64,000 bases of DNA from an uncultured Gammaproteobacteria bacterium (GTDB lineage Bacteria; Patescibacteriota; Patescibacteriia; Magasanikbacterales; UBA922). The position numbers and the translations under genes are program-made. The notes under the pieces are model-generated. The model was not told the origin of the DNA. It was given only the letters and a program-made list of their open reading frames with translations, and made no database searches. This document shows, one piece after another, positions 2,280 to 47,255 of this stretch (positions are counted from its first letter, which is position 1; the number at the start of each line of letters is the position of its first letter). The stretch lies in the NCBI GenBank assembly GCA_964597575.1, contig CAZQXB010000001.1, forward strand, positions 128,964-192,963. The letters run 5' to 3'.

Positions 2280-3395
2280 CTAAAAACTTTGCGTGAGCGA
2301 GTAAATGGGCATAATGACGGCGACTGCAACCCCGGCCACAGCAACCCCGAGCGTCAAAATAATCACCGGTTCGATAATGACCGTAAAGTTTTTCATGGTT
2401 TTGTCGACTTCTTCACTATAAAACTCCGAAAGTTCGGCAAGGAGGCGATCCACTTCACCGGTGCGTTCACCCACCATCACCATTTCTGTAACCATCGGTG
2501 GAAAGAGTTTAGGGTAGGCAGAGAGAATTTCGGAAAAAGGAGTACCTGATTTTATTTTGACCGAAGTTTCTTTGAGTGCGTCTTGGAAAGTCATGTTTGA
2601 ACAGGTCTGCGATGTAATCTCTACGGCATCAATAATGGGAATGGTACTCTTTAAAAGCGATGAGAGTGTAAGGGAGAAACGAGCTAAGTTAATTTGTTTA
2701 ATCACTGGGCCAAAAATTGGGAGACGCAGTGTTGTTCTGTGCACTGCGCGGTGAAACTTAGGAAATTTTTTCAAAGCAAAAATATACGCCACGACGAGCA
2801 CGATGCCTCCGCCAATCGTGATAATAAGGTTGAGCGGGTTACTCAGAAAGTGCACCACAGCAATTAAAATTTGTGTAGCCAGAGGGAGTTCGGCTTCAAA
2901 CTCATCAAAAATCTCAATAAGCTTTGGTAAAACCACGGTCGCCATCACAATCCCAATGACGCCCATGGCACTTAAAATAACCCCAGGGTAAATAAGAGCG
3001 CCACGAATGCTTGAGCTGAGGGCGTATGATTTTTTGAGTTGGGTAACAATTTGTGAGAGTGCTTCGTCCAGTCGTCCGGAAATTTCTCCGGAGTGAATCA
3101 TGCTGACCGCCATGGCCGGGAATACCTTCGGATATTCCGCTAAGACCTCGCTGAGCTCACGGCCTTTTTCTACCTCGGTTTTTACTTGCCCCACAATACG
3201 TCGAAGTTTCGGATTCTCCATTTCTTTTTCTAGAATGCTGAGTGCCTCAACTAACGAAAGACTCGCATGAATCATGGTGCGCAAGTGGTCGAGAAAAAAT
3301 ATTTTATGCACGAGCGTAATTCGTGAAAATTTTTCCACGAATTGATTCAATTTCTGAATAAATTTTGGTTCGGCTTTTTTTGTTACCATACACAT
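2280..3395 (-). CDS. pilC: type IV pilus inner-membrane platform protein PilC (GspF family)
   Basis: 371 aa polytopic protein with two GspF-type repeats (…ILSAYPKLFPPMVTEMVMVGERTGEVDRLL…). Its start overlaps the pilB stop. Confidence 0.85.
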   Translation of the reverse strand: MCMVTKKAEPKFIQKLNQFVEKFSRITLVHKIFFLDHLRTMIHASLSLVEALSILEKEMENPKLRRIVGQVKTEVEKGRELSEVLAEYPKVFPAMAVSMIHSGEISGRLDEALSQIVTQLKKSYALSSSIRGALIYPGVILSAMGVIGIVMATVVLPKLIEIFDEFEAELPLATQILIAVVHFLSNPLNLIITIGGGIVLVVAYIFALKKFPKFHRAVHRTTLRLPIFGPVIKQINLARFSLTLSSLLKSTIPIIDAVEITSQTCSNMTFQDALKETSVKIKSGTPFSEILSAYPKLFPPMVTEMVMVGERTGEVDRLLAELSEFYSEEVDKTMKNFTVIIEPVIILTLGVAVAGVAVAVIMPIYSLTQSF

Positions 3396-5125
3396 TAATC
3401 ACGGGTTACACGAAGCACTTCTTCAATTGTGGTAATGCCTTGTTTGGCTTTAATAAGACCATCTTGAAGCATGGTAATCATGCCACTCTCTACGGCAAAC
3501 TTTTTAATTTCTTGGGCATTTGCCCGGTTGTTAATGAGCGTAATCAGATCTTTATCAATTTCAAGCACCTCATAGATTCCCATGCGCCCCTTATAGCCAG
3601 AGTCACCACAGCGACTACAACCTTCTCCGTGAAAAAACGTCATGGATTTTACGTCTTCTTCTTTTTTATCGAGGTTGATACCTTGATCCGTAAAAAGTTT
3701 GATGATTTTCTTTACATCAAACGTTCGTTCCAATTCCTCAATCGCCGGAGCTTCAAGCGTAAATGGCTTTTTACAAAATTCGCAGATTTTACGCACTAAC
3801 CGTTGAGCCACAATAATGTTTGCGGTAAAGGCGACCAAAAAAGGAGGAATATCCATGTCGAGCAAACGAGGAAGGGTGGTAGGTGCATCGTTCGTGTGGA
3901 GGGTAGAGAGCACCGAGTGTCCGGTCATAGCGGCGTGAATGGCAATTTCGGCAGTTTCTTTGTCGCGAATTTCTCCGACCATGATAATATCCGGGTCCTG
4001 ACGGAGAAAAGCACGCAGCCCTCCGGCAAAGGTAAATCCAGCTCGCGGGTTGATCTGGCTCTGGTTAATACCTTTGACATGGTATTCAATCGGATCTTCA
4101 ATCGTACAGATATTCACGTCTGGCTGATTCAAAATTCCAAGAAGGGAATAGAGTGTTGTGGTTTTTCCACTTCCGGTTGGCCCAGTAACCAGAATCATGC
4201 CGTGGGGTTTTTCAATGGCGATTTCAACGAGCTTTCGTGGGCCGGGTAAAAAGCCTAATTGGTCGAGGGTAAGCGGTTTTTGCCCTTCATGGAGGAGACG
4301 CATGACGATCTTTTCGCCGTCGTATACGGGAATAATAGACACGCGGAAGGAAAGGCGTTCGTCTTGGACTTTAATCTTGAATCGTCCGTCTTGCGGAACC
4401 ATGTGCTCATCGATTTTGAGATTCGAAAGAATTTTAATACGAGCCATGATCCCATTTTGAACCGTCTTGGGGAGAGCCATGACACTTCGGAGTACTCCGT
4501 CTACACGGTAACGCACCACCACTTCTTTTTCTGTCGGTTCGATGTGAATATCACTCGCTCCTTCAAACACGGCATGTTCAAGAATGCTGTTTACAATGTT
4601 AATGATTGGGAGTTCCTGCGCCGCTTTTTTGAGATCGCTGTCCTCGGTTTGGCCTGTCGCATCGCTCAACTGTTCAATATTAAACGTGCTTTCAAGATCA
4701 GCGTGGTATCGGCGAAGCGCATCTTTGATGTCGGTTGGTGTGGTCAGGAACACTTTTGGGGAGAGACCTGTTTTTCGCTGGATAAACTCGATGGTTTGAA
4801 TATCCTCCGGATCAAGCATGGCGAGCGAAATGTCGGTTTTTGTTGTTTCAAACGCCACGATATTATGCGTTTGAGCGAGCGGGGCGGTAATGGTATTTAA
4901 AACATCCTTTCCAATATCCTTTCCCTTAAGAGGGGTAAACGGAACATTCATGGCCGCAGCCGCCGCGCGATAGAGCTCGGTTTCGTCGATAATGCGCTCA
5001 TCGACCAGGTACTGCTCGAGATCCTTGCGAGCGCTCTCGGCCTTTTTTTTGTAAGCAACAACGTCTTTTGAAGACATCTTTAAAGGGCCTACGAGAAGGT
5101 TTTCGATGAGGGTGACAGGCAGCAT
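3395..5125 (-). CDS. pilB: type IV pilus assembly ATPase PilB (GspE family)
   Basis: 576 aa with Walker A GPTGSGKTTTLYS, a GspE N-terminal domain and the tetracysteine motif CSRCGDSGYKGR. Confidence 0.9.
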   Translation of the reverse strand: MLPVTLIENLLVGPLKMSSKDVVAYKKKAESARKDLEQYLVDERIIDETELYRAAAAAMNVPFTPLKGKDIGKDVLNTITAPLAQTHNIVAFETTKTDISLAMLDPEDIQTIEFIQRKTGLSPKVFLTTPTDIKDALRRYHADLESTFNIEQLSDATGQTEDSDLKKAAQELPIINIVNSILEHAVFEGASDIHIEPTEKEVVVRYRVDGVLRSVMALPKTVQNGIMARIKILSNLKIDEHMVPQDGRFKIKVQDERLSFRVSIIPVYDGEKIVMRLLHEGQKPLTLDQLGFLPGPRKLVEIAIEKPHGMILVTGPTGSGKTTTLYSLLGILNQPDVNICTIEDPIEYHVKGINQSQINPRAGFTFAGGLRAFLRQDPDIIMVGEIRDKETAEIAIHAAMTGHSVLSTLHTNDAPTTLPRLLDMDIPPFLVAFTANIIVAQRLVRKICEFCKKPFTLEAPAIEELERTFDVKKIIKLFTDQGINLDKKEEDVKSMTFFHGEGCSRCGDSGYKGRMGIYEVLEIDKDLITLINNRANAQEIKKFAVESGMITMLQDGLIKAKQGITTIEEVLRVTRD

Positions 5126-6290: not shown

Positions 6291-6515
6291 ATGCCAGGTG
6301 AAGTTGTTCGTAAAAAACGCCCGTGCCATTACTGTGTAAACAAGGCCGAAGTCGTTGACTATAAAGATGTCATGACCCTTCGACGTTTTGTTTCCTCATT
6401 TTACAAAATTGCCCCACGCCGCCGCAGCGGTTTGTGCGCAAGTCATCAGCGTAAGGTTGCTCGCAGCGTTAAGCAGGCGCGCATTCTTGGGCTCATGGCA
6501 TTTGTACCAAAGTAA
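6291..6515 (+). CDS. rpsR: 30S ribosomal protein S18
   Basis: 74 aa with the S18 motif (…YKDVMTLRRFVSSFYKIAPRRRSGLCASHQRKVARSVKQARILGLM…). Confidence 0.9.
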   Translation: MPGEVVRKKRPCHYCVNKAEVVDYKDVMTLRRFVSSFYKIAPRRRSGLCASHQRKVARSVKQARILGLMAFVPK

Positions 6516-6534
6516 ACGCACGAAACACGTTCAA

Positions 6535-6565
6535 AACACACCCTCAATTGAGGGTGTGTTTTGTT
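6535..6565 (+). terminator. intrinsic terminator after rpsR
   Basis: Stem ACACACCCTC / GAGGGTGTGT with loop AATT, followed by TTTTGTTT. Confidence 0.7.
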
Positions 6566-6600
6566 TCTGTGGTATACTTGAGACATATTTGCCTGTCATT

Positions 6601-8379
6601 ATGCCTCGAAAAGGCTTTTCTTTAATTGAAATTATTGTTGCTATTGGGGTATTTGCGCTTCTTACGGTTGGGCTCTATAGCTTGCTCCAATTTGTTTTTA
6701 AATCAGTCTACCAGTCGAGACTGCGCATTTTAGAAACGAGCATTTTGAATGAACAGATCGAGTTGATACGGAATCTCACCTTTTCCGATGTCGGTATTTT
6801 AAATGGAAGTCCGCCTGGTGTTCTTACGCGAACCATAACAACAACACGTGATGGAATCCCTTTTATCATTACAAGAACTATTCGCAATGTTGATGATCCG
6901 GCCGATGGGACGATTGGCGGGGATCCAAACGATACGGCCGCTGCCGATTATAAATTCGTTGATGTTTCAATCATTTGTACCCGTTGCACACAAAATACTC
7001 CTCTTACACTCTCAACGATCGTGGGCCCTCGGTATCTAGAGGGTGACCCAACGCATGGAGCTCTTTTTATTGATGTATTCGACCCACTTGCAAACCCAAT
7101 TGTGGGGGCAGATGTGCATGTGGTGGCAACTTCAACTAGTCCCACATTTGATTTTACTGAAACGACAGATAATAACGGGCGAGTAAGCCTCGTCGATTTG
7201 CCAAGTGGAGTAACGGCGTATCATATTACTGTAACAAAAGCCGGCCATACCACCGATGGTACAGTGGCCGAGAGTGCACTTGTACCAAACCCAACGAAAC
7301 CCCCAGCAACGGTCGTGGCGCAGGATCTGACCGAGATTAGTTTTACGATTGAACCGATTGGGGTGGTTGATCTCTCTACACTTTCGTATACCTGCCAGCC
7401 TATCGGAGGAGTGGATGTTGATATGGACGGCACAAAACTCATTGCGACAAATCCAGATATTCTGCTCATTTCGACAAGCACCGTTACTTCGGCGGGTGGA
7501 CTTGGTCAGTTTTCCCCCCTTATTAGTGATGCGTATGGTTTTGGAGTTTCAGGCTACGATGTCATTGGAACAATTCCTCAGACACCGGTAACAATTTTAA
7601 CCGGAACAACGCAGCCAGTGAGTCTTATTTTGGGGGCAAACACAACACACTCTCTTCTTGTAAATGTCCGAGATGGGGTAACCCGGCAACCGCTTCCTGG
7701 TGCTACGGTTACCGTTACGACAAGCCTTGGTTATAATGTAAGCCAGCAAACAGGTGTTGGTTTTCTTCGTCAAACCGATTGGTCGGATGGTTCGGGCCAG
7801 GAATTGTTTGTAACAGGTACAATGTACTGGCAAGATGATAGTAATGTGGACGCAGTCGTTGATCCAGGAAATGTGCTTTTGCGGGCAGTGGGTTTAGGGT
7901 ATACCGGAGCCGGAACTCTGGAATCTTCCATTTTCGATTTCGGGAGTTCATCCAATTACGGAAATATTATTTGGGAACCGGTTCTTCAATTACCAGCGAC
8001 CGGTACGAGTTCGCTCAAGTTTCATATCGCAACGTCAAATTCTTCAACCCCGGCATCGTGGAATTATTATGGTCCAGACGGTACCCCTTCTACCTACTAT
8101 GATGTGAGTGATACGGTTATTTCCAGTCTTCATGATGGTGAACAGTTTTTGCGGTATAGGATATATTTAGAAACTGCCTCATCGACAGTAACCCCAGTGC
8201 TTTCCGACCTCGTGTTTACCTATACCAATAGCTGTAGCCCTCCAGGTCAGGCATTTTTTTCTTCGCTTAGTGCCATAAGCCACGGGATTCAGGTCACAAG
8301 AGACGGGTACCAAACACAGGAGGTATCTGTTACCCCGAGTGGGGATAGTGCGGTTACGATCGACCTTCTTGCTTTATGA
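6601..8379 (+). CDS. large prepilin-type (class III signal peptide) minor pilin / pilus-associated adhesin-like protein
   Basis: The N-terminus MPRKG|FSLIEIIVAIGVFALL is a prepilin cleavage/methylation motif. Beta-rich Thr/Val-rich domains of about 550 aa follow. The start was set at this Met because the upstream part of the ORF overlaps rpsR in another frame. Confidence 0.65.
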   Translation: MPRKGFSLIEIIVAIGVFALLTVGLYSLLQFVFKSVYQSRLRILETSILNEQIELIRNLTFSDVGILNGSPPGVLTRTITTTRDGIPFIITRTIRNVDDPADGTIGGDPNDTAAADYKFVDVSIICTRCTQNTPLTLSTIVGPRYLEGDPTHGALFIDVFDPLANPIVGADVHVVATSTSPTFDFTETTDNNGRVSLVDLPSGVTAYHITVTKAGHTTDGTVAESALVPNPTKPPATVVAQDLTEISFTIEPIGVVDLSTLSYTCQPIGGVDVDMDGTKLIATNPDILLISTSTVTSAGGLGQFSPLISDAYGFGVSGYDVIGTIPQTPVTILTGTTQPVSLILGANTTHSLLVNVRDGVTRQPLPGATVTVTTSLGYNVSQQTGVGFLRQTDWSDGSGQELFVTGTMYWQDDSNVDAVVDPGNVLLRAVGLGYTGAGTLESSIFDFGSSSNYGNIIWEPVLQLPATGTSSLKFHIATSNSSTPASWNYYGPDGTPSTYYDVSDTVISSLHDGEQFLRYRIYLETASSTVTPVLSDLVFTYTNSCSPPGQAFFSSLSAISHGIQVTRDGYQTQEVSVTPSGDSAVTIDLLAL

Positions 8380-8990
8380 TAAGAGATACGTCTTCGCGAG
8401 GATTTACCATACTTGAGGCCCTTTTTGCCATAAGCATTTTTGCGCTTTTGGCGATGTCGATGGTTTGGGTTCTTATTACCGGCCTTCGTACTCAGCGCAT
8501 TGTGTGGGATCAGCTGAGTGGTCAAAATGATGTTCGGAGAGTGCTTCAACAGGTGGTCGATGATGCACGTCGAGCAGAGCCGTCAAGTGTGGGTGCCTAC
8601 CCCATTGTCGTGGCGTCGTCGACTGAATTTACTTTTTACGCCAACATTAATAACGACAATTTGCGTGAACGAGTCCGCTTTTGGGTTCAAAACGAAGAAC
8701 TTCGAAAAGGCGTTATTACCCCGACCGGTTCTCCGCTTACCTATGAAAGTGCGAATGAAGAGGTAACCGTGCTCGCGCATGATGTGAAGAACATTACCCT
8801 GAACATTCCTCTCTTTTCGTACTATGATGATACATTTACTGGTACTGAAGAGGCGCTTTCGCAGCCGGTAACCACGACCGCGGTACGCCTGCTTAAGGTT
8901 GATCTTGTGGTGGACGTGAATCCTATTTCTTCTCCGGTACCAGTGCGGGCAGAGACATTCGTTCAAGTGCGAAATGTAAAGTTAAACTAG
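8376..8990 (+). CDS. prepilin-type minor pilin (pseudopilin)
   Basis: The N-terminus …SSRG|FTILEALFAISIFALL is a class III signal peptide carrying E5. The gene overlaps the preceding one by 4 nt. Confidence 0.7.
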   Translation: MIRDTSSRGFTILEALFAISIFALLAMSMVWVLITGLRTQRIVWDQLSGQNDVRRVLQQVVDDARRAEPSSVGAYPIVVASSTEFTFYANINNDNLRERVRFWVQNEELRKGVITPTGSPLTYESANEEVTVLAHDVKNITLNIPLFSYYDDTFTGTEEALSQPVTTTAVRLLKVDLVVDVNPISSPVPVRAETFVQVRNVKLN

Positions 8991-9009
8991 ATTTTCTTGT
9001 TCGTAGGAT

Positions 9010-10377
9010 ATGTTCCATTTTTTTTCGAAACGGCACAGATTAGAAAAAAAGAATTCCTCAGACCGTCGAGGAGTTATTTTGGTCTACCTCCTTATTTTTG
9101 GTTCGCTCGTAACCACCATGCTTGTGACCGGGCTTGCAAGCTATACGTTATTTGAACACCGTGTTTCCATGCGAAAACACGATCGCGATTTAGCCTTTCA
9201 TATTGCAGAGGCGGGAATTAATTATTATCGTTGGCACTTGGCGCATTACCCAGATGATTTACAAAATGGTACGGGGCAGCCTGGGCCATACGAACTCCCG
9301 TTTCGCGATAAAGACGGAAATACGTTAGGGTACTATTCTTTAGACATAACACAGCCTTTGATTGGTTCAACGATTGTTCAGATTCGCTCAACCGGCTGGA
9401 CCACTGAAGAGCCAGACAGACCAAGAACTCTTGTGGTTCGCCTCGGCTTTCCGGCGCTAGCTGATTACACCTTCCTCCAGAATGCAAACATGCGTTTTAG
9501 TAGTACGACGGTTGTTCATGGGCCTGTGCACTCTAATGGTGGAATTCAGTTTGATGGTACAACAGACGCCGAAGTTACTTCAGCTCGGCAAACGTATGAC
9601 CCAGGTGATGGTATTCAGCATCCTGGGGTTTGGGGGGTAGGGGGGCCGACGAATTTCTTTACTTATCCAGTTCCGGCGCAAGATTTTAATGCGGTAACAG
9701 TGGATTTAGCAAATTTACAGGCCGATGCAATTAGCGGGGGCACCCGCCTTCTCTCCTCTGGTCGAGAAGGTTGGCATATTACGTTTCGTACAGACGGGCG
9801 CTACGACTTACGTCGTGTGAACAGTCGATCTTCGTATGATGGCAACGCCTACGACATTAATGGTCAAACATTTTGGGGAACATATGATCCTCCAGCAAAC
9901 GGAGCGCTATTTGTCGAAGATAATGTGTGGGTGGACGGAATCGTCGATGGCCGTATTACGGTCGGAGCCTCAAATTTTCAAGGCGCCCCTGATCGCGATA
10001 TTATTATTTCTGGAAATTTAATGTACGAAACCCAGGTGGGGGATGATGTGCTAGGGCTCATCGCTGAACGGGATATCGTGGTACCAAGAAATGTTCCTGA
10101 TACGATGACGATAAACGCGGCTGCTTTGGCTCAAAATGGACGTATTTTTCGCCCGTACTACACCGGAACAAATAGTATCCGGACAAACTTAGTATTTTCT
10201 GGATCCCAAATTGCTTTTAGCGGAGGAGGCTGGAAGTATCTCGGTGGTTCTGGGACGGTCATCTCTGGTTTTGTGAATACGAACCATAGTTACGATGGAA
10301 ACTTGCGGTTTTACCCACCCCCAGGCTTCCCTACCTCCGGAGTGTACGAATTATTGAGCTGGGCTGAAGAAGAGTAA
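9010..10377 (+). CDS. PilX-like large minor pilin / pilus tip-associated protein
   Basis: An N-terminal basic region and hydrophobic helix (RRGVILVYLLIFGSLVTTMLVTGLA) are followed by a large beta-rich domain. It is the third gene in the minor-pilin cluster. Confidence 0.5.
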   Translation: MFHFFSKRHRLEKKNSSDRRGVILVYLLIFGSLVTTMLVTGLASYTLFEHRVSMRKHDRDLAFHIAEAGINYYRWHLAHYPDDLQNGTGQPGPYELPFRDKDGNTLGYYSLDITQPLIGSTIVQIRSTGWTTEEPDRPRTLVVRLGFPALADYTFLQNANMRFSSTTVVHGPVHSNGGIQFDGTTDAEVTSARQTYDPGDGIQHPGVWGVGGPTNFFTYPVPAQDFNAVTVDLANLQADAISGGTRLLSSGREGWHITFRTDGRYDLRRVNSRSSYDGNAYDINGQTFWGTYDPPANGALFVEDNVWVDGIVDGRITVGASNFQGAPDRDIIISGNLMYETQVGDDVLGLIAERDIVVPRNVPDTMTINAAALAQNGRIFRPYYTGTNSIRTNLVFSGSQIAFSGGGWKYLGGSGTVISGFVNTNHSYDGNLRFYPPPGFPTSGVYELLSWAEEE

Positions 10378-11322: not shown

Positions 11323-11908
11323 TTTTCGCCTCTTGAAGATTGTATTTGCCGGAAGCTTTATTTTGGGAAATATTGTTCCGAGTTTTCTTTTTGCCCAAGA
11401 AAACATGAGTCCAGGGCCGGTTATGAGTGAGCCGGGCGACAGAGCGGTAAACGAAACGGTAACAGCATACTGCAATGAAAAATATGAGAAAGATATAAAA
11501 TACGGATGTGAATTAACAACGTTTAGTGATAGCCCGAACGCGCCAGCCGAGTGTAAAGCCTCTTTTTTAAGAGAGTGTATTGCTCAGAGAAACGAACTTG
11601 AGCATGATATAGAAGTCGCAGGTGAAGCGCCGGCTGCGTATGTTCCACGAGGGGCAGGTAGCCTTAATATTCTACAAACCACAAGCTTGACCGGTGCATT
11701 GGGAAAAATTTTAACGACCATCATTGGAATTGTTGGTTCCATAGCGCTTGTCATGTTCATCTATGGCGGGTTTTTGTGGATGACGTCTCAGGGGAACAGC
11801 GATAAGGTAAGCCAGGCAGTGCGAATTATGGTTTGGTCTTCGCTTGGGGTCATGGTTATTTTATCGAGTTACGCCATTGTCGACTTTTTGTTTGGAGCTT
11901 TTGGCTAA
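11315..11908 (+). CDS. array paralog 1: secreted two-TM protein of the TrbC/VirB2-like (T4SS-pilin-like) family
   Basis: A signal peptide is followed by a 4-Cys extracytoplasmic domain and a C-terminal conserved module IALVMFIYGGFLWMTSQGNSDKVSQA…ILSSYAIVDF. The gene overlaps the galU stop by 8 nt. Confidence 0.6.
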   Translation: MRNFRLLKIVFAGSFILGNIVPSFLFAQENMSPGPVMSEPGDRAVNETVTAYCNEKYEKDIKYGCELTTFSDSPNAPAECKASFLRECIAQRNELEHDIEVAGEAPAAYVPRGAGSLNILQTTSLTGALGKILTTIIGIVGSIALVMFIYGGFLWMTSQGNSDKVSQAVRIMVWSSLGVMVILSSYAIVDFLFGAFG

Positions 11909-11921: not shown

Positions 11922-13298
11922 ATGTATAAACGTCTTGTCAGTTTCTTTCTCCTTATCGCCACGCTTGTGGTTGGTGGTTTGGGGTGCAAAGGGCTCACTC
12001 AAGAAGAGGTACAGGCGGTTCGCCCAGTTCGTTTGCAATACTGGACCGTATATAACAATGTAGAGGAGCTCCGGGCACTTGCAGCAGAGTATAAAACACT
12101 CCGTCCCCATGTGACCGTCGATATTCGACGTCTTCGATTTGATGAATTTGAACGGGTACTCTTGAACGCTCTTGCTGATGATGCTGGCCCAGATATTATT
12201 TCTGTTCGGAATACCGATCTTCGAGGAAAGGTGTCACGTCTCTCAGCAATGCCAGCGAGTGTTACCATGGCTCGCCTTGAGGTAAAAGGGCAGTACGCAA
12301 AAGAAACCGTGGTCACTCAAGAGGTAGTTCCCATGCCAACAAAACAAACCATTGAGAGTGTGTACGTTCAGGCCGTTCCACAAGATGTGGTGATAAGTAA
12401 CAAAATCTACGGGCTGCCCCTGGCCATAGATACACTTGCACTTTATTATAATAAAGACCTTCTCGATGCGGCCGGCGTGCCTCTTCCTCCAAAAACCTGG
12501 CCAGAACTATTCGAGGCGGTAAAGAAGGGGACAAAGTATGATGCCGACGGAAATATTGTGCAGGCAGGCATAGCCATGGGAACAGGGGCAAATATCGACA
12601 ATGCCTTTGATATCATCTCCCTTCTCATGCATCAAACGAATGTTACCATTGCCGCAGGCCGTGAGGTACAATTCGCCAAAGGACTCGATAATCGGGCGGC
12701 GCCCAATCACCCGGCTATGCAAGTTCTTCGTTTTTATACTGATTTTGCCAGAAATTCCAAAGAAATCTATTCTTGGAATACCAGCATGCCAAATGCGTTC
12801 GAGTCATTCGTGCGCGGGCAAAGTGTGTTTTACTTGGGGTTTGCTTTTGATCGTGAGCGTATTCGAGCAGCAGCTCCACAGATGAATGTTGAAGTTGTGG
12901 CCGCGCCCCAACTTCCCGATGCTACTCCGGTCAATGTTGCAAACTACTGGGTTGAGAGCGTTCTTAAAAAATCAAAGCGCCAGAATGAAGCTTGGGATTT
13001 CATTCGGTTTATTACAAGTCCGCAAAACGTACTTCGGTATACCAAAGCATCACTTCAGCCATCACCCCTTCGAGCTCAGTTAACCGAACAGCTTTCCAAC
13101 CCGCTTTTAGTGCCGTTTACGAGTCAGGTTCTCACCGCAAAGAATTGGTATGAAGGGCGGAATATCGACGCGGTCCGAGCAGCTTTTGCAGATATGGCTG
13201 ATAAGTCGGTTGCGCCTCTTAAAGAAGAGGAAGATCAGTTGGTACGCGACGCAGGCCTGCTTCTTCGTACGGCTCAGATAACTCAACAAACGTACTAA
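11922..13298 (+). CDS. ABC transporter solute-binding lipoprotein (family 1, sugar-type), orphan
   Basis: The lipobox LVVGGLG|C is followed by a periplasmic-binding-protein fold sequence of 459 aa. No permease or ATPase gene is adjacent. Confidence 0.75.
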   Translation: MYKRLVSFFLLIATLVVGGLGCKGLTQEEVQAVRPVRLQYWTVYNNVEELRALAAEYKTLRPHVTVDIRRLRFDEFERVLLNALADDAGPDIISVRNTDLRGKVSRLSAMPASVTMARLEVKGQYAKETVVTQEVVPMPTKQTIESVYVQAVPQDVVISNKIYGLPLAIDTLALYYNKDLLDAAGVPLPPKTWPELFEAVKKGTKYDADGNIVQAGIAMGTGANIDNAFDIISLLMHQTNVTIAAGREVQFAKGLDNRAAPNHPAMQVLRFYTDFARNSKEIYSWNTSMPNAFESFVRGQSVFYLGFAFDRERIRAAAPQMNVEVVAAPQLPDATPVNVANYWVESVLKKSKRQNEAWDFIRFITSPQNVLRYTKASLQPSPLRAQLTEQLSNPLLVPFTSQVLTAKNWYEGRNIDAVRAAFADMADKSVAPLKEEEDQLVRDAGLLLRTAQITQQTY

Positions 13299-13301: not shown

Positions 13302-14243
13302 ATGAAATATTTTTTACGAAAATGTTGTGTTATCGCACTGTGCGTACTCGGTTTTTTCACAACTTCTTCTTTTGTTCGCGCAGTAGGGGAAGACTGTTGT
13401 GTTCTCTATGAGGCTGACCGAGCTGTGAGTTGTCGCGTAAGTGGGGTTTGTAATGCTCAGACCACTGCTCAATACCCTGCAAGTACGAGTGAGATCGGAA
13501 ATCCGGGTGTTAGTTGCCGTTCGGAAAACGACGGTCAAGCGCGTATCAGGGTTTGCACCAAAGAAATAATTATATCGGAACGCTCTACGTCATGTGGCGC
13601 CGAAGCTTTATGTAACGAGGCTCTTGTTGAGTATGATAACTGTGAAAATTTATCTGTTTCAGGAGAATCAAATTCTTCATGCGCAAGAAATCCGAGATGT
13701 TTCGTCCTCCCTGGTGCGAACGGGATTACTTGTGTAAGTAAAGAAGACAGAAATCTCTGTAGTAAAATCACCGATGCCTCGCTCTGTGGGCCTGCGAGTG
13801 ATAACAGCATAAGAGGGGCGCGATTTTGCCGTTGGTTAAGTGGTCCAGAAGGGGCACGATGTGTCGGGGATGCTGAAGCCGCTGCTGCCGGGCGTTTATC
13901 AGGGGTAAAAAGCAGTGTCTTGCCCCAGTGCGCCATCCAAGGTACATGTCGAAGCATTCGCGATTTAGAAGATCTGGCTTTTAAAGTAGTTGAGTTGCTG
14001 TTTAGCATTATTGGTGCAGTCTCCTTTGCCTTTTTCATCTACGGAGGGGTGGTTATGATTTCTTCGTTTGGGAATAGTGATCAATTTTCGAAAGGAAAGG
14101 CAATCTTAGTGGCAGCGGTAACTGGTATTATCATCTCCTTCAGCGCGTATCTCTTAATCGGCTACTTGTTTACTCTGCTTGGTATTGAAGCGGGGTTACG
14201 AGGCGGTATCCAAGTAAGTTTTCTTTCCCATCTATGGCTCTAA
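13302..14243 (+). CDS. array paralog 2: Cys-rich secreted domain + C-terminal TrbC/VirB2-like two-TM module
   Basis: An SPI-type signal peptide is followed by an extracytoplasmic domain of about 200 aa with more than 25 Cys. The C-terminal module reads FAFFIYGGVVMISSFGNSDQFSKGKA. Confidence 0.6.
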   Translation: MKYFLRKCCVIALCVLGFFTTSSFVRAVGEDCCVLYEADRAVSCRVSGVCNAQTTAQYPASTSEIGNPGVSCRSENDGQARIRVCTKEIIISERSTSCGAEALCNEALVEYDNCENLSVSGESNSSCARNPRCFVLPGANGITCVSKEDRNLCSKITDASLCGPASDNSIRGARFCRWLSGPEGARCVGDAEAAAAGRLSGVKSSVLPQCAIQGTCRSIRDLEDLAFKVVELLFSIIGAVSFAFFIYGGVVMISSFGNSDQFSKGKAILVAAVTGIIISFSAYLLIGYLFTLLGIEAGLRGGIQVSFLSHLWL

Positions 14244-14824
14244 AACGCACCTCAAAGACATTTTTTATTTTGGTTTTAGGGCTCATTACCCTTAGTATTC
14301 CTTCCCAAATAGAAGCGGCAGTTTGTCGATATACGGAACGAGTATATATTGGAGTAGCGGGAACTCCAACTCGAGATGAGGCACGTTGCCAACCCCTCCA
14401 GGTAGGGGATACCACTGCCCAAAGTAACGAGTGTAGTAATCTCTGTGCCCCGGCAGGCAACGGCCTTCCTGGTACTTGTGTTGTTGATCAAACGGCATGC
14501 GATTCTGCTCCTTCAGGGGTTCAAGACGATAAACTAAAGGCGTACGTTATCTCCCTCCAAAACCCTCTGGGGTCAAAATATCAAAAAGATGCCGGGGTAC
14601 TCATTCCGGAACTCCTCGGAACCCTTATTAGTAATGCTCTTGGGCTGGTCGGCACTTTAACGCTCGTTGTATTCATTTACGGAGGCTTTGTTTGGCTTAC
14701 TTCTGCGGGAAATGAAGAGAAGGTGTCCAAAGGGACGCATGCTATGATGTATGCTGCGATTGGGATCTGTATTATTTTTTCAAGTTATGCTATACTGCAG
14801 TTAGTCTTTCAGGCCTTCAGATAG
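14234..14824 (+). CDS. array paralog 3
   Basis: A signal peptide (…SQIEA|A) and a Cys-rich region precede the module LVVFIYGGFVWLTSAGNEEKVSKG. The gene overlaps the previous one by 10 nt. Confidence 0.6.
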   Translation: MALKRTSKTFFILVLGLITLSIPSQIEAAVCRYTERVYIGVAGTPTRDEARCQPLQVGDTTAQSNECSNLCAPAGNGLPGTCVVDQTACDSAPSGVQDDKLKAYVISLQNPLGSKYQKDAGVLIPELLGTLISNALGLVGTLTLVVFIYGGFVWLTSAGNEEKVSKGTHAMMYAAIGICIIFSSYAILQLVFQAFR

Positions 14825-14905
14825 AAACAGAAAAAGACTATCCATGTGATAATTTTAGGTAGTAAGGACTTTTATGAATCTGACTACACGAAAGGGGGTG
14901 AGTAC

Positions 14906-15355
14906 ATGACTCACGCAATGTCGAACGTCACTCGGTTTGGTTATATTCTTAGTACCATCGCCGTACTCGCCTTAGGAGTAGCGGTAACACCAGCTTTTGC
15001 TCAAGATAACACTGACCCACTCGGGGTTACTGCTTTTGAACAACCTGGAGTATCAAACCTCGGTAGCCGTCCTCTTGAACAAACAATTGGCGGTATTATC
15101 AACGTAGGCTTAAGCCTTCTTGGTATCGTCGCTGTCGTTATCATCTTAATTGGTGGTGCGAAGTGGATGACCGCTGGAGGAAACGAAGATAAAGTTGGCG
15201 AAGCTCGTCAATTAATCGTTTCTGGTATTATCGGTTTAGCGATCATTATGAGCGCTTGGGCAATCGCCCGCTTCGTCTTAGTCCGCTTAGGACAACAGAC
15301 TGGAGTAGCCGGTGCAAACGAAAACTACCAACTTGACGGACCAGTAGCTCCGTAA
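14906..15355 (+). CDS. array paralog 4
   Basis: The Shine-Dalgarno sequence AAGGGGGTG precedes the ATG. Signal peptide …TPAFA|Q and module VIILIGGAKWMTAGGNEDKVGEARQ. Confidence 0.6.
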   Translation: MTHAMSNVTRFGYILSTIAVLALGVAVTPAFAQDNTDPLGVTAFEQPGVSNLGSRPLEQTIGGIINVGLSLLGIVAVVIILIGGAKWMTAGGNEDKVGEARQLIVSGIIGLAIIMSAWAIARFVLVRLGQQTGVAGANENYQLDGPVAP

Positions 15356-15380
15356 TCGTTTGTAGAAAATATGGTGTAGA

Positions 15381-15407
15381 GGGGCAGGGTTCCTGCCCCT
15401 TTCTACC
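15381..15407 (+). terminator. intrinsic terminator inside the array (after paralog 4)
   Basis: Stem GGGGCAGG / CCTGCCCC with loop GTTC, followed by TTTCTACCAAAATT. Confidence 0.55.
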
Positions 15408-15479
15408 AAAATTCGAGGGTTGAAATGTGGATACAGTCTACATTTTAGGACTTGAGCACTTTATACCTTCTCTTTCTCT

Positions 15480-15926
15480 ATGGTACGTGTGAAAACACTT
15501 TTTGGAGAGGCGAATAGAAAAAAAAGTTTTTTCCTTACTTTTTCTGCTCTCATTTTAGGTCTCGGCGTTTTTGTGTTTTCTGTTTCTCCGGTGTTTGCCG
15601 AAGGTGTTGATATTGGGATTGAGTATGCAGCCAGTTCCGGTTTACCCGATACCCCGCCCATTATCATTATTACCAACATCATCAATATCATTCTTGGGCT
15701 TTTGGGGATCATCACAACGGTTCTTATTGTGTACGCTGGATTTTTGTGGCTGACCTCTGCGGGGAATGAAGATAAAATTGATACTGCCAAACAGGTAATT
15801 AGCGCGGCTGTAATTGGGCTCATTCTCGTACTTTCTTCCTACACCATTAGCCGTTTTGCCCTTCGCGCAGTGTATAAGAGTACGACTGGAAATAACTACC
15901 CAACCCCGTATCTGTATAATCGCTAA
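15480..15926 (+). CDS. array paralog 5
   Basis: Signal peptide …SPVFA|E and module VLIVYAGFLWLTSAGNEDKIDTAKQ. Confidence 0.6.
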   Translation: MVRVKTLFGEANRKKSFFLTFSALILGLGVFVFSVSPVFAEGVDIGIEYAASSGLPDTPPIIIITNIINIILGLLGIITTVLIVYAGFLWLTSAGNEDKIDTAKQVISAAVIGLILVLSSYTISRFALRAVYKSTTGNNYPTPYLYNR

Positions 15927-15934
15927 GAGTTTGT

Positions 15935-16777
15935 ATGAAGCGCCATCTTCGATGGACAATGATTGGGGTGGTTACAATCGTGGTTTTGTTTGGTGTTTCA
16001 TTGTTTGGTGAAACCGTGTTCGGGCAAACGCAAGCAGTGGATAAGCTTCGTCAAGGCGCCACAGAGTTGGTGGGAAAAACGCCCTTGCCAATCAGTAATA
16101 CGAACATAAGCACGTCACAGCTGCCCACGCTTATTGGTCGAATTATTGGAAACATTTTGTCGCTTCTCGGAATTGTCTTTTTTCTTCTCACCCTCTATGC
16201 AGGTTTGCTGTGGATGTTTGCCCGCGGCGATGAGTCAAAGGCAGGGAAGGCAGCAGACATTATAAAGGGAGCTATCGCTGGTCTTATTGTGGTGCTCGGG
16301 TCGTACGCGTTGACGAACTTGGTTTTCGATATTGTCGGTTTCCCTAATTCACAGGAGCCATCAGTACAAGAATCGGCCGATGCACCTCTTAGAAATCCAG
16401 GGACACGGCCAACGGGTGATCGAACGACCCCGATCGGAGGGCTTTGTGTCACCGACGAAGAGTGTGTGAATTTAGCGGTATGCCAAAATTCACGTTGTGT
16501 GGATTTATGTACAGCACAGCCACCAAGTGCCGGAGGTGGGTATGCATGCCGAGATGTGGCTTTGTGTGATGAACCAAGTATTGTGCGAAATTTATGCAGC
16601 GGAGGGGTGGATCGTGTCTGCTGTCGTGAAGCCGTGGAATTTCCTGATGAAGCCTGTCGTCGCCGAATCACTAGCGGCTCATTCTGTGTTGATCCGAACG
16701 GACAGCCGCACAACTGTGATGTGCACTCCACACGACTCACCTGTGACGCAGACAATTGCTGCAATTGGGGCAACTAA
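15935..16777 (+). CDS. array paralog 6: N-terminal two-TM module + C-terminal Cys-rich domain
   Basis: The module LTLYAGLLWMFARGDESKAGKA sits near the N-terminus. A C-terminal domain of about 150 aa with about 24 Cys follows. Confidence 0.6.
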   Translation: MKRHLRWTMIGVVTIVVLFGVSLFGETVFGQTQAVDKLRQGATELVGKTPLPISNTNISTSQLPTLIGRIIGNILSLLGIVFFLLTLYAGLLWMFARGDESKAGKAADIIKGAIAGLIVVLGSYALTNLVFDIVGFPNSQEPSVQESADAPLRNPGTRPTGDRTTPIGGLCVTDEECVNLAVCQNSRCVDLCTAQPPSAGGGYACRDVALCDEPSIVRNLCSGGVDRVCCREAVEFPDEACRRRITSGSFCVDPNGQPHNCDVHSTRLTCDADNCCNWGN

Positions 16778-16783
16778 TAACCT

Positions 16784-17494
16784 ATGCGTATGATATTTCC
16801 TTCCCGTTTCATTGTATCGTTTTTCGCAGGCTTTGTGGGTGCAGGTGTAAGCACTGCTACCGCGGTGTTCGCTCAGAGTGCGGGCGGAAATTTTGGTTTG
16901 AATGCAACCGCGGGTTCAGCAGGTTTAGCAAGCGGGGGAGCTACGTCATTGCCAGATTTTATCGGAAACTTGGTTGGTGTCGGCCTGTCATTCATCGGTA
17001 TCGTTTTTTTCATTCTCATGCTCTATGGTGGATTTTTATGGATGACCGCCCGTGGGAGTGAAGATCAGACCAGTAAAGCCATTGGTACCATTACGGCCGG
17101 AGCGATTGGGATGATTGTCATTATGGCTTCGTATACCATAACCAGTTTCTTGTTTAATAGTCTAACCCCAGGTGGAAGTAGTGCTCCTGGTCAATCATCG
17201 CAAGTGCTCGGCTGCAGAGCAGGAGAAGTAGGGCGGTGCACTTCTATTGGCGGCTGTGGAGCAGGGCGCGTAGAACAGAATATAAATGCTTGTCCGGGAG
17301 CGGATGAGTACCTCTGCTGCAGTGAGGATTCTTCAACCAATGCTCGACAGGTGTGGTGCTGCGTCGTCGGTGGAGACAATCCAAACCAACCAAATGATCC
17401 GGTTCAGATATATACGGTTGGAGAACCGCAAGAATGTACCAGTCGAGGAGGTAACGCAAGTTTCATTCCATTTGAAGATTGCACCGCTTCTTAA
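16784..17494 (+). CDS. array paralog 7: N-terminal module + C-terminal Cys-rich domain
   Basis: Signal peptide …AVFA|Q, module ILMLYGGFLWMTARGSEDQTSKA, and a C-terminal Gly/Cys-rich domain of about 110 aa. Confidence 0.6.
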   Translation: MRMIFPSRFIVSFFAGFVGAGVSTATAVFAQSAGGNFGLNATAGSAGLASGGATSLPDFIGNLVGVGLSFIGIVFFILMLYGGFLWMTARGSEDQTSKAIGTITAGAIGMIVIMASYTITSFLFNSLTPGGSSAPGQSSQVLGCRAGEVGRCTSIGGCGAGRVEQNINACPGADEYLCCSEDSSTNARQVWCCVVGGDNPNQPNDPVQIYTVGEPQECTSRGGNASFIPFEDCTAS

Positions 17495-18650: not shown

Positions 18651-19175
18651 ATGATGAACTGGGGACGTGGAAAAAAAATACTCTTCACCATCTGTGCTCT
18701 TTTTTTAATGCTCCCGGTTTTTGCACAGGCCCAATCACTCCGAACAAATATCATGGATCAAATTCGGGTGGGAGGGGAAAGTGCGAGTTATAATTCTTCA
18801 GTAGATAATCCGCAAACATTTGCGGCTGGGCTTATACAAATATTTTTAGGCCTCTTAGCCACTATTTTTCTCATTCTTATCCTCATGAGCGGATACTGGT
18901 TGATTACGGCCCGGGGAGATGAGAGTAAGTATGATAAGGCACTCTCTACGATCAAGCGGGCGATCATTGGATTTACGCTTGTCATTGCATCATATGCGCT
19001 TGTTAGTTTGATTGCTCGGGTTATAGTTTCGAGCACCGTGCCGGATGTTGATAGGGTGCGTTGTGTACCAGATCGAAGTGTTCCAGGTACAATCGACACC
19101 AGTGCTTGCGCTCGGTTTATTGATGAATCAAGTTGTTTAGCAGCAGACATGTCCGATTGCTTATGGATGCCATAA
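18651..19175 (+). CDS. array paralog 11 with short C-terminal 4-Cys tail
   Basis: ATG start at MMNWGRG; the longer ORF starts with TTG. Signal peptide …VFAQA|Q, module ILILMSGYWLITARGDESKYDKA, and the C-terminal tail …RCVPD…SACARFIDESSCLAADMSDC. Confidence 0.55.
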   Translation: MMNWGRGKKILFTICALFLMLPVFAQAQSLRTNIMDQIRVGGESASYNSSVDNPQTFAAGLIQIFLGLLATIFLILILMSGYWLITARGDESKYDKALSTIKRAIIGFTLVIASYALVSLIARVIVSSTVPDVDRVRCVPDRSVPGTIDTSACARFIDESSCLAADMSDCLWMP

Positions 19176-19759: not shown

Positions 19760-20872
19760 TTATTGGAGGGAGGAGAGGATCGTGTCGACGGCAGGCAGTA
19801 AGGGTTTAGTGCCTTTGGGGGCGGTATACCCGTGCCCCAGCGCCTCTGGTTTCTGGCCGATATAGTAAAGAAGATCAGACAGCGAGCGAGCCACAACCCC
19901 ATACCCGTGTTCAAGAATAAACTCCACATTGTGTTCTTCTTGCCCAGGAATCGGTTGAATCGCAAGGATTGGTTTTTGGAGAACGATACATTCGCTTGTG
20001 GTGAGTCCGCCTGGTTTTGTAATAATGATATCGGCCATTTTCATATAGCTTTCGAGTTCATCCGTCCAGCCAAGGGCAGTGAGATGAATGTGAGGAGGAG
20101 GAGACATGGCGTTCAGTTTTTGAGCTAGCACCGTATTTTTTCCGGCCACTGCGATAATGGTTGTTTTTTTAGGGAGACGGAACAGTGTCTCTACAATTTT
20201 TGTGAGGTCAATGAGGCCCTCTCCCCCTGAGAGAACCAAAATAGTCTGCACTTCCGGGTCATACCCATACGCCTTTTTTAGGGCGTGAGCAGAATAGGGT
20301 TCATAGAAAGAAGTATTTATGGGGATTCCAGAAACAATGATCTGAGACTCCTTTAGCCCTGCTTCAATCAGTTTGAATTGCATTTTTTCTGTGGCGACAA
20401 AGAACTGATTAATATCATTTGATACAAACAGCGCGTGTTTGTCGTAATCAGTTAAGACGAGGCTTATTGGCACCTCTTTTAAAAAGTCCGGTCGGTCATT
20501 CCCGAGGGTCTGTGTTGGTAAATAATGGGTTCCAATGATATGTGTGGGTGCATATTCCTGCACATGCCGGAGAAAGGCCTTTGTGTTTACGTGTGAGAAG
20601 CGTTTGCTTAAGCGTGACCAGTGGGAGTCCTTCTTTTCTTTATTTGTTGAATTGTAGATCAGCCCCCATACTTGCGGTGCCTGCTTAATAAGCAAAGTAT
20701 ACGAGCGAGTAAATGCTGTTTTGTAGGCTTTTGAGACGTGGTCCATCATGTCAATGTGGGTAGCCTCAATTCCGAGTGCCCGCGCACGCGCTACAATCGC
20801 TTCTGCGGCCCGTACATGACCTGCACCAACAGAAACTGACACACAGAGGATTTTCTTTTGTGGGGAAGACAT
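19760..20872 (-). CDS. GT28-family glycosyltransferase (MGDG synthase / UgtP-like diacylglycerol glycosyltransferase)
   Basis: The N-terminal Gly-rich motif ILCVSVSVGAGHVRAAEAI and the C-terminal nucleotide-sugar-binding half are present. The start was trimmed to MSSPQKK because the longer ORF would run into tRNA-His. Confidence 0.7.
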   Translation of the reverse strand: MSSPQKKILCVSVSVGAGHVRAAEAIVARARALGIEATHIDMMDHVSKAYKTAFTRSYTLLIKQAPQVWGLIYNSTNKEKKDSHWSRLSKRFSHVNTKAFLRHVQEYAPTHIIGTHYLPTQTLGNDRPDFLKEVPISLVLTDYDKHALFVSNDINQFFVATEKMQFKLIEAGLKESQIIVSGIPINTSFYEPYSAHALKKAYGYDPEVQTILVLSGGEGLIDLTKIVETLFRLPKKTTIIAVAGKNTVLAQKLNAMSPPPHIHLTALGWTDELESYMKMADIIITKPGGLTTSECIVLQKPILAIQPIPGQEEHNVEFILEHGYGVVARSLSDLLYYIGQKPEALGHGYTAPKGTKPLLPAVDTILSSLQ

Positions 20873-20944
20873 ATAATCAATTGTAACACAGGGTCTATAA
20901 ACACAAAACACCCAAATTGGGTGTTTCGCTTCGTTTTCCCCTAC

Positions 20945-21021
20945 TGGGGTGACTAACGGGAATCGAACCCGTGATAAGGGTACCACAAACCCCTGTGTTA
21001 CCTCTACACCATAGTCACCCC
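20945..21021 (-). tRNA. tRNA-His (anticodon GTG)
   Basis: The reverse complement folds as a cloverleaf: acceptor stem GGGGTGA/TCACCCC with an extra 5' G, anticodon stem GGGGT/ACCCT with loop TTGTGGT, and T-arm ACGGG-TTCGATT-CCCGT. The 3' half closely resembles E. coli tRNA-His. Confidence 0.85.
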
Positions 21022-44458: not shown

Positions 44459-44508
44459 TAATAGGGTCATTATAAACCCCATTACCATCCCTCCTGTTTG
44501 TGTGTTGT

Positions 44509-45003
44509 TTACTCCTTGATCGCCTTGAAGATGGCGAGGGTTTCGTCACACCACCAACCTGCATCGATGGTGCGACCAAAGAACTTCTTCTTCCAGCGAT
44601 CTGCCGGCTCGGGCCAGGGCTCGCGCACATCGAGAGAGGGTGCGAGAGAGCTCATCCGCCTATCGAGAGCCTCGAGGCGGAGAACCAGCTTTTTCAGCTG
44701 CGTCGGCGCGCCCTTTCCGAGCGTGTTTCGCACCTCGATCAAATCGTTCAGTTCATCTCTCTTTTTTGCCGCTCGCAACCATCGCGTCGGCCACTTTCCC
44801 TGGGGCGGAGGAGTCTTCTCGAAGAACTCTGCCGTTTTTTCGAGACCTTTGATCTGCGTCTCGAAGAAGGAGACGAGCTCCACTTTCTCCAGATCGAACA
44901 GACTTGTGATCATTTTCGCGATTTTTTCGAAGTCCTTCCCTGTCATCATCATTGTTTTCTCACTGAGGAGAAAGAGGGTCTTGGCCAAGTGGTTCGTCTT
45001 CAT
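44509..45003 (-). CDS. hypothetical protein (island ORFan)
   Basis: Helical and charged. Start set at MKTNHL, preceded by the RBS AAGGAG. GC-rich. Confidence 0.4.
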   Translation of the reverse strand: MKTNHLAKTLFLLSEKTMMMTGKDFEKIAKMITSLFDLEKVELVSFFETQIKGLEKTAEFFEKTPPPQGKWPTRWLRAAKKRDELNDLIEVRNTLGKGAPTQLKKLVLRLEALDRRMSSLAPSLDVREPWPEPADRWKKKFFGRTIDAGWWCDETLAIFKAIKE

Positions 45004-45204
45004 GGTTGTAGCTCCTTTTTTCTCTTTCATCGCTACAAATGAAAGAGGTAACGTGGGCATGGTTGCCACACAAATTAAAGGTTTTTGTTTACCTCGGGTG
45101 AGGTAAACATATCCTTCTCTCATCCACTCTTTTTGCAAAGAGGGGAAATTGAGAAGCCAAGTATCGTACGGACTTGGCCACCGTTTTTTTAGAAATTTAC
45201 TTTT

Positions 45205-45831: not shown

Positions 45832-45879
45832 TTTTTTCCTCTCACCACATTCTTTGTGAAGAATATGGAATTGAGGAGG
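45832..45879. repeat. 48-bp nested-palindrome repeat, copy R2
   Basis: Sequence TTTTTTTCCTCTCACC-ACATTCTT-TGTG-AAGAATAT-GGAATTGAGGAGG. Confidence 0.7.
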
Positions 45880-46032
45880 CGAACAGTGTTGATACAACCG
45901 TTCGCCAACTTGTCCGAATGCTTTGGACTTTTTTCTCAAAACAGATACAGAATGTATCCGGAAACGCATCAAGAATGGCGCGGATCTTCACCGATAGTTT
46001 TGAAATTTCGGCGCTTTTATTTTTTTACTTCT

Positions 46033-46311: not shown

Positions 46312-46343
46312 GCTTCTTTCGTTGTGCAGCTGTTTATTTGTTC

Positions 46344-46921: not shown

Positions 46922-47255
46922 TTGCCCTCCTGAGGATTGTTACCGAACACTGCATGAATCTCTTTAGATTATGCGTGCGTGGTTTTGGTTTCCTCAATTG
47001 ATATTCCGATAAAATTCAGCGTATCAATCGAGGATCCTATAGCTGTTTGTGTGCCAAACAACTATAGGTCTCGAGTGCTTTGCCATTTATGTCCGGCGGA
47101 CAGGAGCTCTGCTTCTCCAAGGCTCACACAGTTTTGGTTGTGTGACCACCAGCCTGTCGTTTTCTAGAGTCAGGTATCTTCTTTTCCTAATGAAGAAAAA
47201 GAATCTTTACTCCAACCTGATAATCAATCAGGGAATTTTATCTAGAGGAAGTTGA

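Follow-up and report, generated by a model that had tools for sequence, protein, structure and literature searches.

The stretch of DNA analysed here (the window) comprises 64,000 nucleotides of contig CAZQXB010000001.1 (assembly GCA_964597575.1, positions 128,964 to 192,963), from a genome placed in the Magasanikbacterales of the Patescibacteriota. Between positions 11315 and 19693 of the window, 12 short paralogous open reading frames (ORFs), numbered P1 to P12 here, are lined up on the + strand. In six of the 12 a cysteine-rich segment is added to a conserved two-helix module: N-terminally in P1–P3, where it lies between the signal peptide and the first helix, and C-terminally in P6, P7 and P11, where it follows the second helix behind a linker rich in G, S, T and P. 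A preliminary description of this DNA, whose quoted peptides were all found in these ORFs, had proposed that the module is a membrane hairpin serving as a display scaffold and that disulfide-rich domains are swapped in and out of it.

A tandem array of VirB2-like pilins

The conserved module had been described as a two-helix membrane hairpin. The hairpin itself is confirmed, but its identity as a named family, and the arrays of that family already published (PMC12102498), had been missed: the module is Pfam PF18895 (T4SS_pilin, for type IV secretion system), the VirB2-like pilin family of Patescibacteria. Ten of the 12 paralogs reach the gathering score of 26.6 bits (26.9–39.9 bits) and two, P8 and P12, fall slightly under it, while a local hidden Markov model (HMM) of the module matches all 12. 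Matches to the TrbC/VirB2 family PF04956 stay below its cut-off of 27.9 bits (P4: 15.3 bits, E 0.024; P11: 18.8 bits, E 0.0019), a similarity that by its scores is a distant resemblance only, and there are weak matches to NF045849, a pilin-like family of Mycoplasma integrative and conjugative elements. According to the hydropathy segments, the module consists of two hydrophobic helices with a short K/R-rich loop between them, and it lies behind a Sec-type signal peptide in every paralog. The signal peptide ends in A/G-x-A/G|Q in eight of them (P1, P4, P6, P7 and P9–P12) and in A|V, A|A or A|E in the other four. The N-methylation motif PF07963 (IPR012902) has no match on any of the 12 paralogs; it is present in the neighbouring pseudopilins at 6388–8990.

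The three N-terminally extended members differ considerably in cysteine content. P1 (11315–11908; PF18895 35.7 bits), which the preliminary description had left out, has a Sec signal peptide, an N-ectodomain with four Cys (aa 53–88, nt 11471–11578) and then the module (aa 125–195, nt 11687–11899). P2 (13302–14243; 313 aa; 29.8 bits) consists of a signal peptide (aa 1–27), an N-ectodomain (aa 28–221, nt 13383–13964) and the module (aa 222–292, nt 13965–14177). In P3 (14234–14824; 37.6 bits) the N-ectodomain spans aa 29–123 (nt 14318–14602) and the module aa 124–194 (nt 14603–14815). The earlier placement of cysteine-rich domains ahead of the module in P2 and P3 was correct, but not the count of more than 25 Cys given for P2, which has 21 in total: 18 belong to the mature N-ectodomain (aa 32–216) and the other three to the signal peptide. 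P3 has only six in an ectodomain of about 95 aa, plus one in a transmembrane helix, and is better called cysteine-containing than large or cysteine-rich.

The C-terminally extended members agree with what had been described, namely a module near the N-terminus followed by a cysteine-rich domain in P6 and P7, and a short 4-Cys tail in P11. P6 (15935–16777; 31.0 bits) has its module at aa 63–133 (nt 16121–16333), a P/S/T-rich linker (nt 16334–16444) and a C-ectodomain (aa 171–276, nt 16445–16762) with 16 Cys, which can be read as one 4-Cys unit and, after it, two 6-Cys units ending in CC; the first 6-Cys unit covers nt 16508–16624. P7 (16784–17494; 26.9 bits) has its module at aa 56–126 (nt 16949–17161) and a C-ectodomain (aa 144–233, nt 17213–17482) of 10 Cys, readable as a 6-Cys unit ending in CC (nt 17213–17320) and four further Cys. 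In P11 (18636–19175; 33.4 bits) the module (nt 18810–19022) precedes the 4-Cys tail (aa 143–175, nt 19062–19160).

The remaining six paralogs are plain. P4 (14906–15355; 39.1 bits; ORF open from 14846, start taken from the ortholog) and P5 (15480–15926; 30.3 bits) contain no Cys at all; the P4 module is 96% identical to that of the orthologous array L001 described below. P8 (17510–17872; 25.5 bits), P9 (17890–18252; 39.9 bits), P10 (18254–18646; 33.7 bits; ORF open from 18185, start again taken from the ortholog) and P12 (19181–19693; 23.1 bits; ORF open from 19133) complete the array, P8 and P12 being the two members that lie under the PF18895 cut-off and match the local module HMM.

Predicted topology and cysteine pairing, and divergence of the extensions

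To the window we added 83 related loci, giving a survey set of 84 sources (1.38 Mb) whose ORFs were searched with the module HMM built from the 12 paralogs. The search returned 652 pilin-module ORFs, about eight per source, of which 237 (36%) have an extension containing four or more Cys. At least one such cysteine-rich extension is present in 72 of the 84 sources, and 45 have both the N-terminal and the C-terminal type, whereas only four proteins are cysteine-rich at both ends. Most of the relatives that P6 retrieved bear the label Candidatus Magasanikbacteria, Uhrbacteria or Patescibacteria group, the nearest named ones being Candidatus Magasanikbacteria. Among the titles of loci L005–L083, many third-party-annotation contigs of metagenome-assembled genomes with typical Patescibacteria arrays are called “uncultured Gammaproteobacteria bacterium”, one is assigned to Omnitrophota and one to Bacillota; such records are probably mislabelled or mis-binned.

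The distribution of charges and cysteines in the pilin-module proteins is consistent with extensions that lie outside the cell. The K/R density is 0.27 in the inter-helix loop compared to 0.09 and 0.07 in the outer flanks, and by the positive-inside rule a K/R-rich loop marks the cytoplasmic side. In VirB2/TraA pilins the loop is cytoplasmic (on the lumen side once the pilus is assembled), and both termini point outward. Taken together, the positive-inside rule, the even number of cysteines and this known topology lead us to infer a cytoplasmic loop with the two termini on the outer side, so that an extension at either end would be surface-exposed and disulfide-bonded. Two outward-facing termini would account for ectodomains on the N-side in some paralogs and on the C-side in others. 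Between the module and a C-terminal domain lies a linker with a median length of 18 residues, about 60% of them G, S, T, A or P.

Cysteines make up 8.3% of the C-extensions and 6.9% of the N-extensions, compared to 1.05% of neighbouring non-pilin ORFs, an enrichment of about eightfold, and about 0.1% of the module, which contains 0.08 Cys on average. Their number is even in all six ectodomains of the window (4, 18, 6, 16, 10 and 4 in P1, P2, P3, P6, P7 and P11), in 153 of 156 C-extensions (three odd; binomial p ~1e-41) and in 141 of 164 N-extensions (p ~7e-22), some of the odd N-terminal counts probably resulting from errors in the signal-peptide boundary. Judged from the sequences, this parity is a signature of paired, disulfide-bonded cysteines.

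Two syntenic orthologous arrays, L001 (a Joint Genome Institute metagenome) and L003/L004 (Logan assemblies), contain 12 pilins in the same order, the gene sequence being NTP-transferase, pilin, solute-binding protein (SBP), 11 pilins, monogalactosyldiacylglycerol (MGDG) synthase and Band_7. In the window, L001 and L003 the same members are extended, and at the same end. The number of Cys in the window, L001 and L003, respectively, is constant for the N-extensions of P1 (4/4/4), P2 (18/18/18) and P3 (6/6/6) and differs for the C-extensions of P6 (16/4/6), P7 (10/6/12) and P11 (4/4/12). On a check that the preliminary description had suggested, the arrays differ mainly in these domains: modules are 61–96% identical and cysteine-rich extensions 10–50%. 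The two orthologs of the P2 N-domain, alike in architecture, are 50% and 40% identical over the domain and keep 17 of its 18 ectodomain cysteines invariant. This conservation, the even counts and the recurrence of the architecture in two syntenic arrays bear out the earlier view that the cysteine-rich regions are not ORF artefacts. P6 orthologs from a database of 5.8 billion clusters have 167 aa without a tail, 182 aa with a 4-Cys mini-unit, or 201–213 aa, with 0–8 Cys in the tails; relative to these, the 16-Cys tail is found in the window genome only, and a search with the P6 C-domain alone returned no homologs. The extensions appear to evolve fast, the N-domains diverging while keeping their Cys framework and the C-tails gaining and losing small 4- and 6-Cys units.

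Some relatives carry far larger ectodomains. L073 (9878–15703) encodes a protein of 1,941 aa in which the module is fused to TIG, Big_5 and fn3 domains (Pfam), with 126 Cys in a C-terminal ectodomain of 1,823 aa, and L083 (10166–15706) encodes a pilin-module protein of 1,846 aa with 120 Cys in a C-terminal ectodomain of 1,790 aa. Big_5 is joined to the pilin module in L083 and in L065 as well. Such fusion proteins cannot be major pilins; in them the module clearly serves to carry or anchor domains at the surface. In addition, L016 (7992–8978) and L047 (6576–7472) each contain a single ORF with two tandem T4SS_pilin modules, that is, a fused double pilin.

Relationships and folds of the cysteine-rich domains

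The 240 cysteine-rich extensions of the survey fall into 125 BLAST clusters, of which 80 are singletons, and each cluster is limited to one terminus; among the 240 there is not a single BLAST match between an N- and a C-extension. HMMs of the 19 larger clusters gave only four marginal matches across termini (E 0.002–0.007), and comparison with 2,537 non-pilin ORFs only one weak match. An exhaustive HMMER search of 1.84 billion representatives with a profile of the P2 N-domain found 43 relatives. In full-length relatives the match ends 80–90 aa ahead of the C-terminus, with PF18895 directly after it in nine of nine checked, and by these matches the P2 domain was found only N-terminal to pilin modules.

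The C-tails look like strings of small units whose number differs among orthologs. For one unit, C-x5-12-C-x4-7-C-x9-15-C-x5-7-CC, we counted 23 occurrences in C-extensions and a single one in an N-extension (L034, 4993–5688), compared to zero in 455,000 aa of non-pilin ORFs and 0.2 ± 0.46 in residue shuffles. It often contains GG-x-C, ahead of the second Cys, and CPGG. The six-Cys pattern of β-defensins is C-x4-8-C-x3-5-C-x9-13-C-x4-7-CC; the spacing of the units (5–12/4–7/9–15/5–7/CC), which were picked by a regular expression of that shape, overlaps it and is longer on average. Defensin_beta (PF00711) is the only Pfam family to match more than one unit, although with just two of 20 and a best E of 0.039 it stays below threshold. 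Some units of relatives score 9–18 bits against a small β-defensin HMM, well above shuffles with fixed cysteines and comparable to the 13–19 bits that bona fide β-defensins reach against one another; the mean z relative to such shuffles is 1.4, and the units of P6 and P7 in the window do not exceed them. A profile search of the PDB with the 6-Cys units gave no matches, and hhalign returned a probability of about 1% each against β-defensin (0.9%), α-defensin and WAP alignments; of the control sequences, only hBD3, the hBD2 core and gallinacin-11 were checked against the PDB. With sub-threshold Pfam scores, an empty profile search and a low hhalign probability, the units were not assigned to the β-defensins by sequence or profile, and the likeness in spacing, with its mixed evidence, is a lead rather than membership. 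The units also differ from β-defensins (PF00711), knottins, WAP domains and the EB module in that they stand in tandem inside larger tails, and, whereas defensins are cationic, they are not.

Structure prediction and a Foldseek search, which had been suggested as a check, did not identify the domains. AlphaFold2 gave a predicted local distance difference test score (pLDDT) of 51.9 for P6 (six-sequence alignment), with 40–54 over the region of the 6-Cys units, and of 45.1 for P2 (three sequences). Searched against the PDB, the P6 model, itself of low pLDDT, had no match with E < 0.5, the best being at E 0.53 and conotoxin and squash-inhibitor matches at E > 2. The only Pfam family to match the P6 domain was the EB module (PF01683), at 16.1 bits compared to a cut-off of 24.3. 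Knottin, EGF and EB-module membership was accordingly not supported, there being no match at the Pfam threshold or by Foldseek.

Modular pilins as candidate adhesion determinants

We consider it probable, though well short of certain, that the decorated paralogs are “modular” VirB2-like pilins displaying variable, disulfide-stabilised ectodomains for adhesion or recognition, in contact with the host or a substrate. The hairpin would be the carrier, either anchoring the protein in the membrane or entering a T4SS-type pilus as one of its subunits, and the plain short paralogs (P4, P5, P8–P10 and P12) might supply the pilus shaft or anchor. In the decorated paralogs the disulfide-stabilised ectodomains would form the variable part that contacts the ligand, their most likely role being adhesion to, or recognition of, the surface of the host cell by an episymbiont. 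The display scaffold proposed at the outset fits the Sec signal peptides, the K/R-rich loop, the even Cys counts, the linkers and the TIG/Big_5/fn3 fusions in relatives, and the array does present one module with different ectodomains on its N- or C-side. A more specific version, which we put forward tentatively and regard as possible at most, would have the decorated paralogs be undescribed modular VirB2-type pilins, i.e. T4SS pilus subunits or tip proteins, whose hypervariable, disulfide-knotted ectodomains (and Ig-like domains in relatives) are the determinants of host recognition and adhesion of episymbiotic Patescibacteria; in this version, some CC-ending 6-Cys units may be bacterial β-defensin-like folds.

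The second half of the original proposal, that domains are shuffled, would require a mobile pool of cysteine-rich cassettes exchanged among pilin genes, termini and other genes. The varying number of C-tail units between orthologs, the one N-terminal occurrence of an otherwise C-terminal 6-Cys unit in L034 and the four proteins with cysteine-rich domains at both ends are what such exchange might leave behind. They are outweighed by clusters that keep to one terminus, the complete lack of N-versus-C BLAST matches among 240 extensions, the near absence of cross-terminus HMM matches and of matches in non-pilin ORFs, a P2 domain that always precedes the pilin module, and three arrays in which the extended members and ends are fixed. 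Shuffling, understood as the same domains changing places, is therefore not supported by the sequence comparisons, and we regard it as unlikely. Even less can be said for extensions that are non-functional, be it as drifting tails, read-through products or mis-called ORFs. The P6 C-domain without a detectable homolog, the 80 singletons among 125 clusters and the low AlphaFold2 confidence could be read this way, but the excess of even over odd Cys counts (153 to 3) and the conserved Cys frameworks can be maintained only if paired cysteines are selected for, the frames are open over 100–1,800 aa, the architecture is conserved in position in three arrays and Cys is enriched about eightfold, which makes lack of function very improbable.

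The likeness to defensins raises the question of anchored pro-toxins or antimicrobial peptides, whose cysteine-rich units would, once released or presented, damage or permeabilise the host cell while the hairpin served for export and anchoring only. The excess of the 6-Cys unit in C-extensions over shuffles, Defensin_beta as the sole Pfam family matching more than one unit, and HMM scores of some relatives' units in the range of true β-defensins speak for this explanation. Against it, the P6 and P7 units of the window score no better than Cys-fixed shuffles, hhalign gave a probability of about 1% and the PDB profile search no match, the units are not cationic, and no processing site or protease was identified; the large Ig-like fusions in relatives moreover favour adhesion over toxicity. 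We hence judge a toxic role to be rather improbable. Cysteines at high density and in CC doublets might also bind a metal (Zn or Fe–S) instead of forming disulfides, an explanation to which we give scarcely any credence given the extracytoplasmic location indicated by signal peptide and loop charge bias, counts of 6, 10 and 18 that are even yet not multiples of four, and sequences that, where inspected, showed neither His enrichment nor CxxC-type spacing.

Several observations weigh against modular pilins displaying adhesive ectodomains. A VirB2-type filament would probably have no room for an ectodomain of 100–200 aa, or 1,800 aa as in relatives, on each of its subunits, and the decorated paralogs may never polymerise. 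A scan of the window's ORFs from 150 aa upwards found no virB4, virB6, prgI or other T4SS core gene; with the array adjoining type IV pilus genes instead, assembly by a T4SS is no more than putative for this genome. A pilus of the PF18895 type has not been visualised in any Patescibacterium, reviews speaking of a “potential to elaborate” one (PMC12857230). Furthermore, Dsb and VKOR oxidases were looked for in the window and none was seen, both AlphaFold2 models are too poor for a fold or a ligand to be named, and the survey loci were chosen by similarity to P6, with ORF starts and signal-peptide ends set heuristically.

Tandem arrays of VirB2-like pilins are known from Patescibacteria, where 441 arrays of 2–11 genes were reported in 383 assemblies, with members about 25% identical and, in some arrays, a non-pilin gene in between (Quiñonero-Coronel et al, 2025; PMC12102498). 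The array of the window shares with these, and with that of Southlakia (PMC10633639), the Pfam family, the signal peptide and the two helices, and resembles the published arrays in its tandem layout, low paralog identity and occasional non-pilin interruption. It differs in having 12 members, in the absence of virB4 from the window and in the cysteine-rich ectodomains on half of its members, to which relatives add Ig-like adhesin domains on the module. A pilin gene lies near virB4 in 1,135 of 1,948 assemblies (PMC12102498), so association with T4SS genes is not obligatory for PF18895. No adhesins were detected for the Patescibacteria T4SS in the same study, and no mention of cysteine-rich or other ectodomain fusions on these pilins was found in the literature searched. 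Thus, the array and the module were already known, whereas widespread, position-specific fusions of cysteine-rich and Ig-like ectodomains to VirB2-like pilins appear to be undescribed.

Other pilin systems offer partial parallels. The VirB2, TrbC and TraA conjugative pilins of diderm bacteria (PF04956) also combine a signal peptide with a helical hairpin, whereas the organism of the window is a monoderm and its pilins score only 15–19 bits against that family. Classical members are pilins of 7–10 kDa without added domains, and a head-to-tail cyclisation as in T-pilin or RP4 TrbC is implausible with terminal domains of 100–200 aa. Modular type IV pilins such as PilB and PilC of Streptococcus sanguinis share the design of a carrier with a functional module grafted on by a linker, and are likewise widespread and of many architectures (Raynaud et al, 2021; PMC8179133). 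They nevertheless form an unrelated family, with a class III signal peptide and an N-methyl motif, a single N-terminal helix and assembly by a PilB-type ATPase, and their grafts are C-terminal only, whereas the array of the window has grafts at either terminus; by this analogy the likeness is one of function, not of membership. The VirB2 expansions of Bartonella and Anaplasma, as far as PMC12102498 summarises them, also comprise many divergent copies thought to vary the surface or the interaction with the host, and in that summary the copies vary inside the pilin itself, without appended disulfide-rich domains.

If the ectodomains are adhesive, surveys reporting no adhesins for the Patescibacteria T4SS would have missed pilins that bear them. 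For a cultured Patescibacterium, Southlakia epibionticum, VirB2-like arrays belong to the small number of gene sets that its epibiotic life has been shown to depend on (Wang et al, 2023, PMC10633639; PMC12857230). With about a third of the pilin-module proteins of the lineage carrying fast-evolving, disulfide-rich or Ig-like ectodomains on termini predicted to face outward, it can be hypothesised that the pilins themselves carry the specificity of host contact, in which case differences between arrays could be compared with differences in host range. The “modular pilin” principle, described for type IV pilins, would also apply to a family of pilins unrelated to them. The survey also supplies a large set of unclassified small disulfide-rich bacterial domains.

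The array is interrupted between P1 and P2 by an SBP gene (SBP_bac_1/8; 11922–13298, +), identified by Pfam matches and by synteny with L001 and L003, its start being inferred from orthologs of 458 aa. It encodes an extracellular solute-binding protein of the ABC type and occupies the same place in the orthologous arrays (L001, 1781–3157; L003, 5965–7341). Directly upstream of the array lie the type IV pilus genes PilC (2280–3395, −), PilB (3395–5125, −) and pseudopilins (6388–10377, +). The latter comprise a PilX_N protein and two proteins with N_methyl, one of them a pseudopilin of 663 aa that also has a CarboxypepD_reg domain and is in itself a “modular” type IV pilin; L003 has kept this neighbourhood. 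Another PilB-like T2SSE ATPase (53806–55515, +) stands between ORFs of 363 aa and 406 aa (52681–56757) that have no Pfam or NCBIfam match.

Housekeeping genes are also present in the window, and Rfam and tandem-repeat scans gave nothing relevant to the array. Two further large ORFs, of 806 aa (50270–52690, −) and 516 aa (58824–60374, −), have no match in Pfam or NCBIfam. Within 44498–47831, long ORFs overlap on both strands (44498–45138, 45205–45972), and the local GC content rises to 0.53 at 46–48 kb; an ORF of 191 aa (47256–47831, −) has a Cas_csx3 domain match (E 3.7e-6), and the window yielded no tandem repeat resembling a CRISPR. Finally, a tRNA-His (20945–21018, −) lies across the 5′ end of the longest ORF for a glycosyltransferase resembling MGDG synthase (19760–20986, −), which places the start of the latter further downstream, in line with orthologs of 368–373 aa rather than 408.

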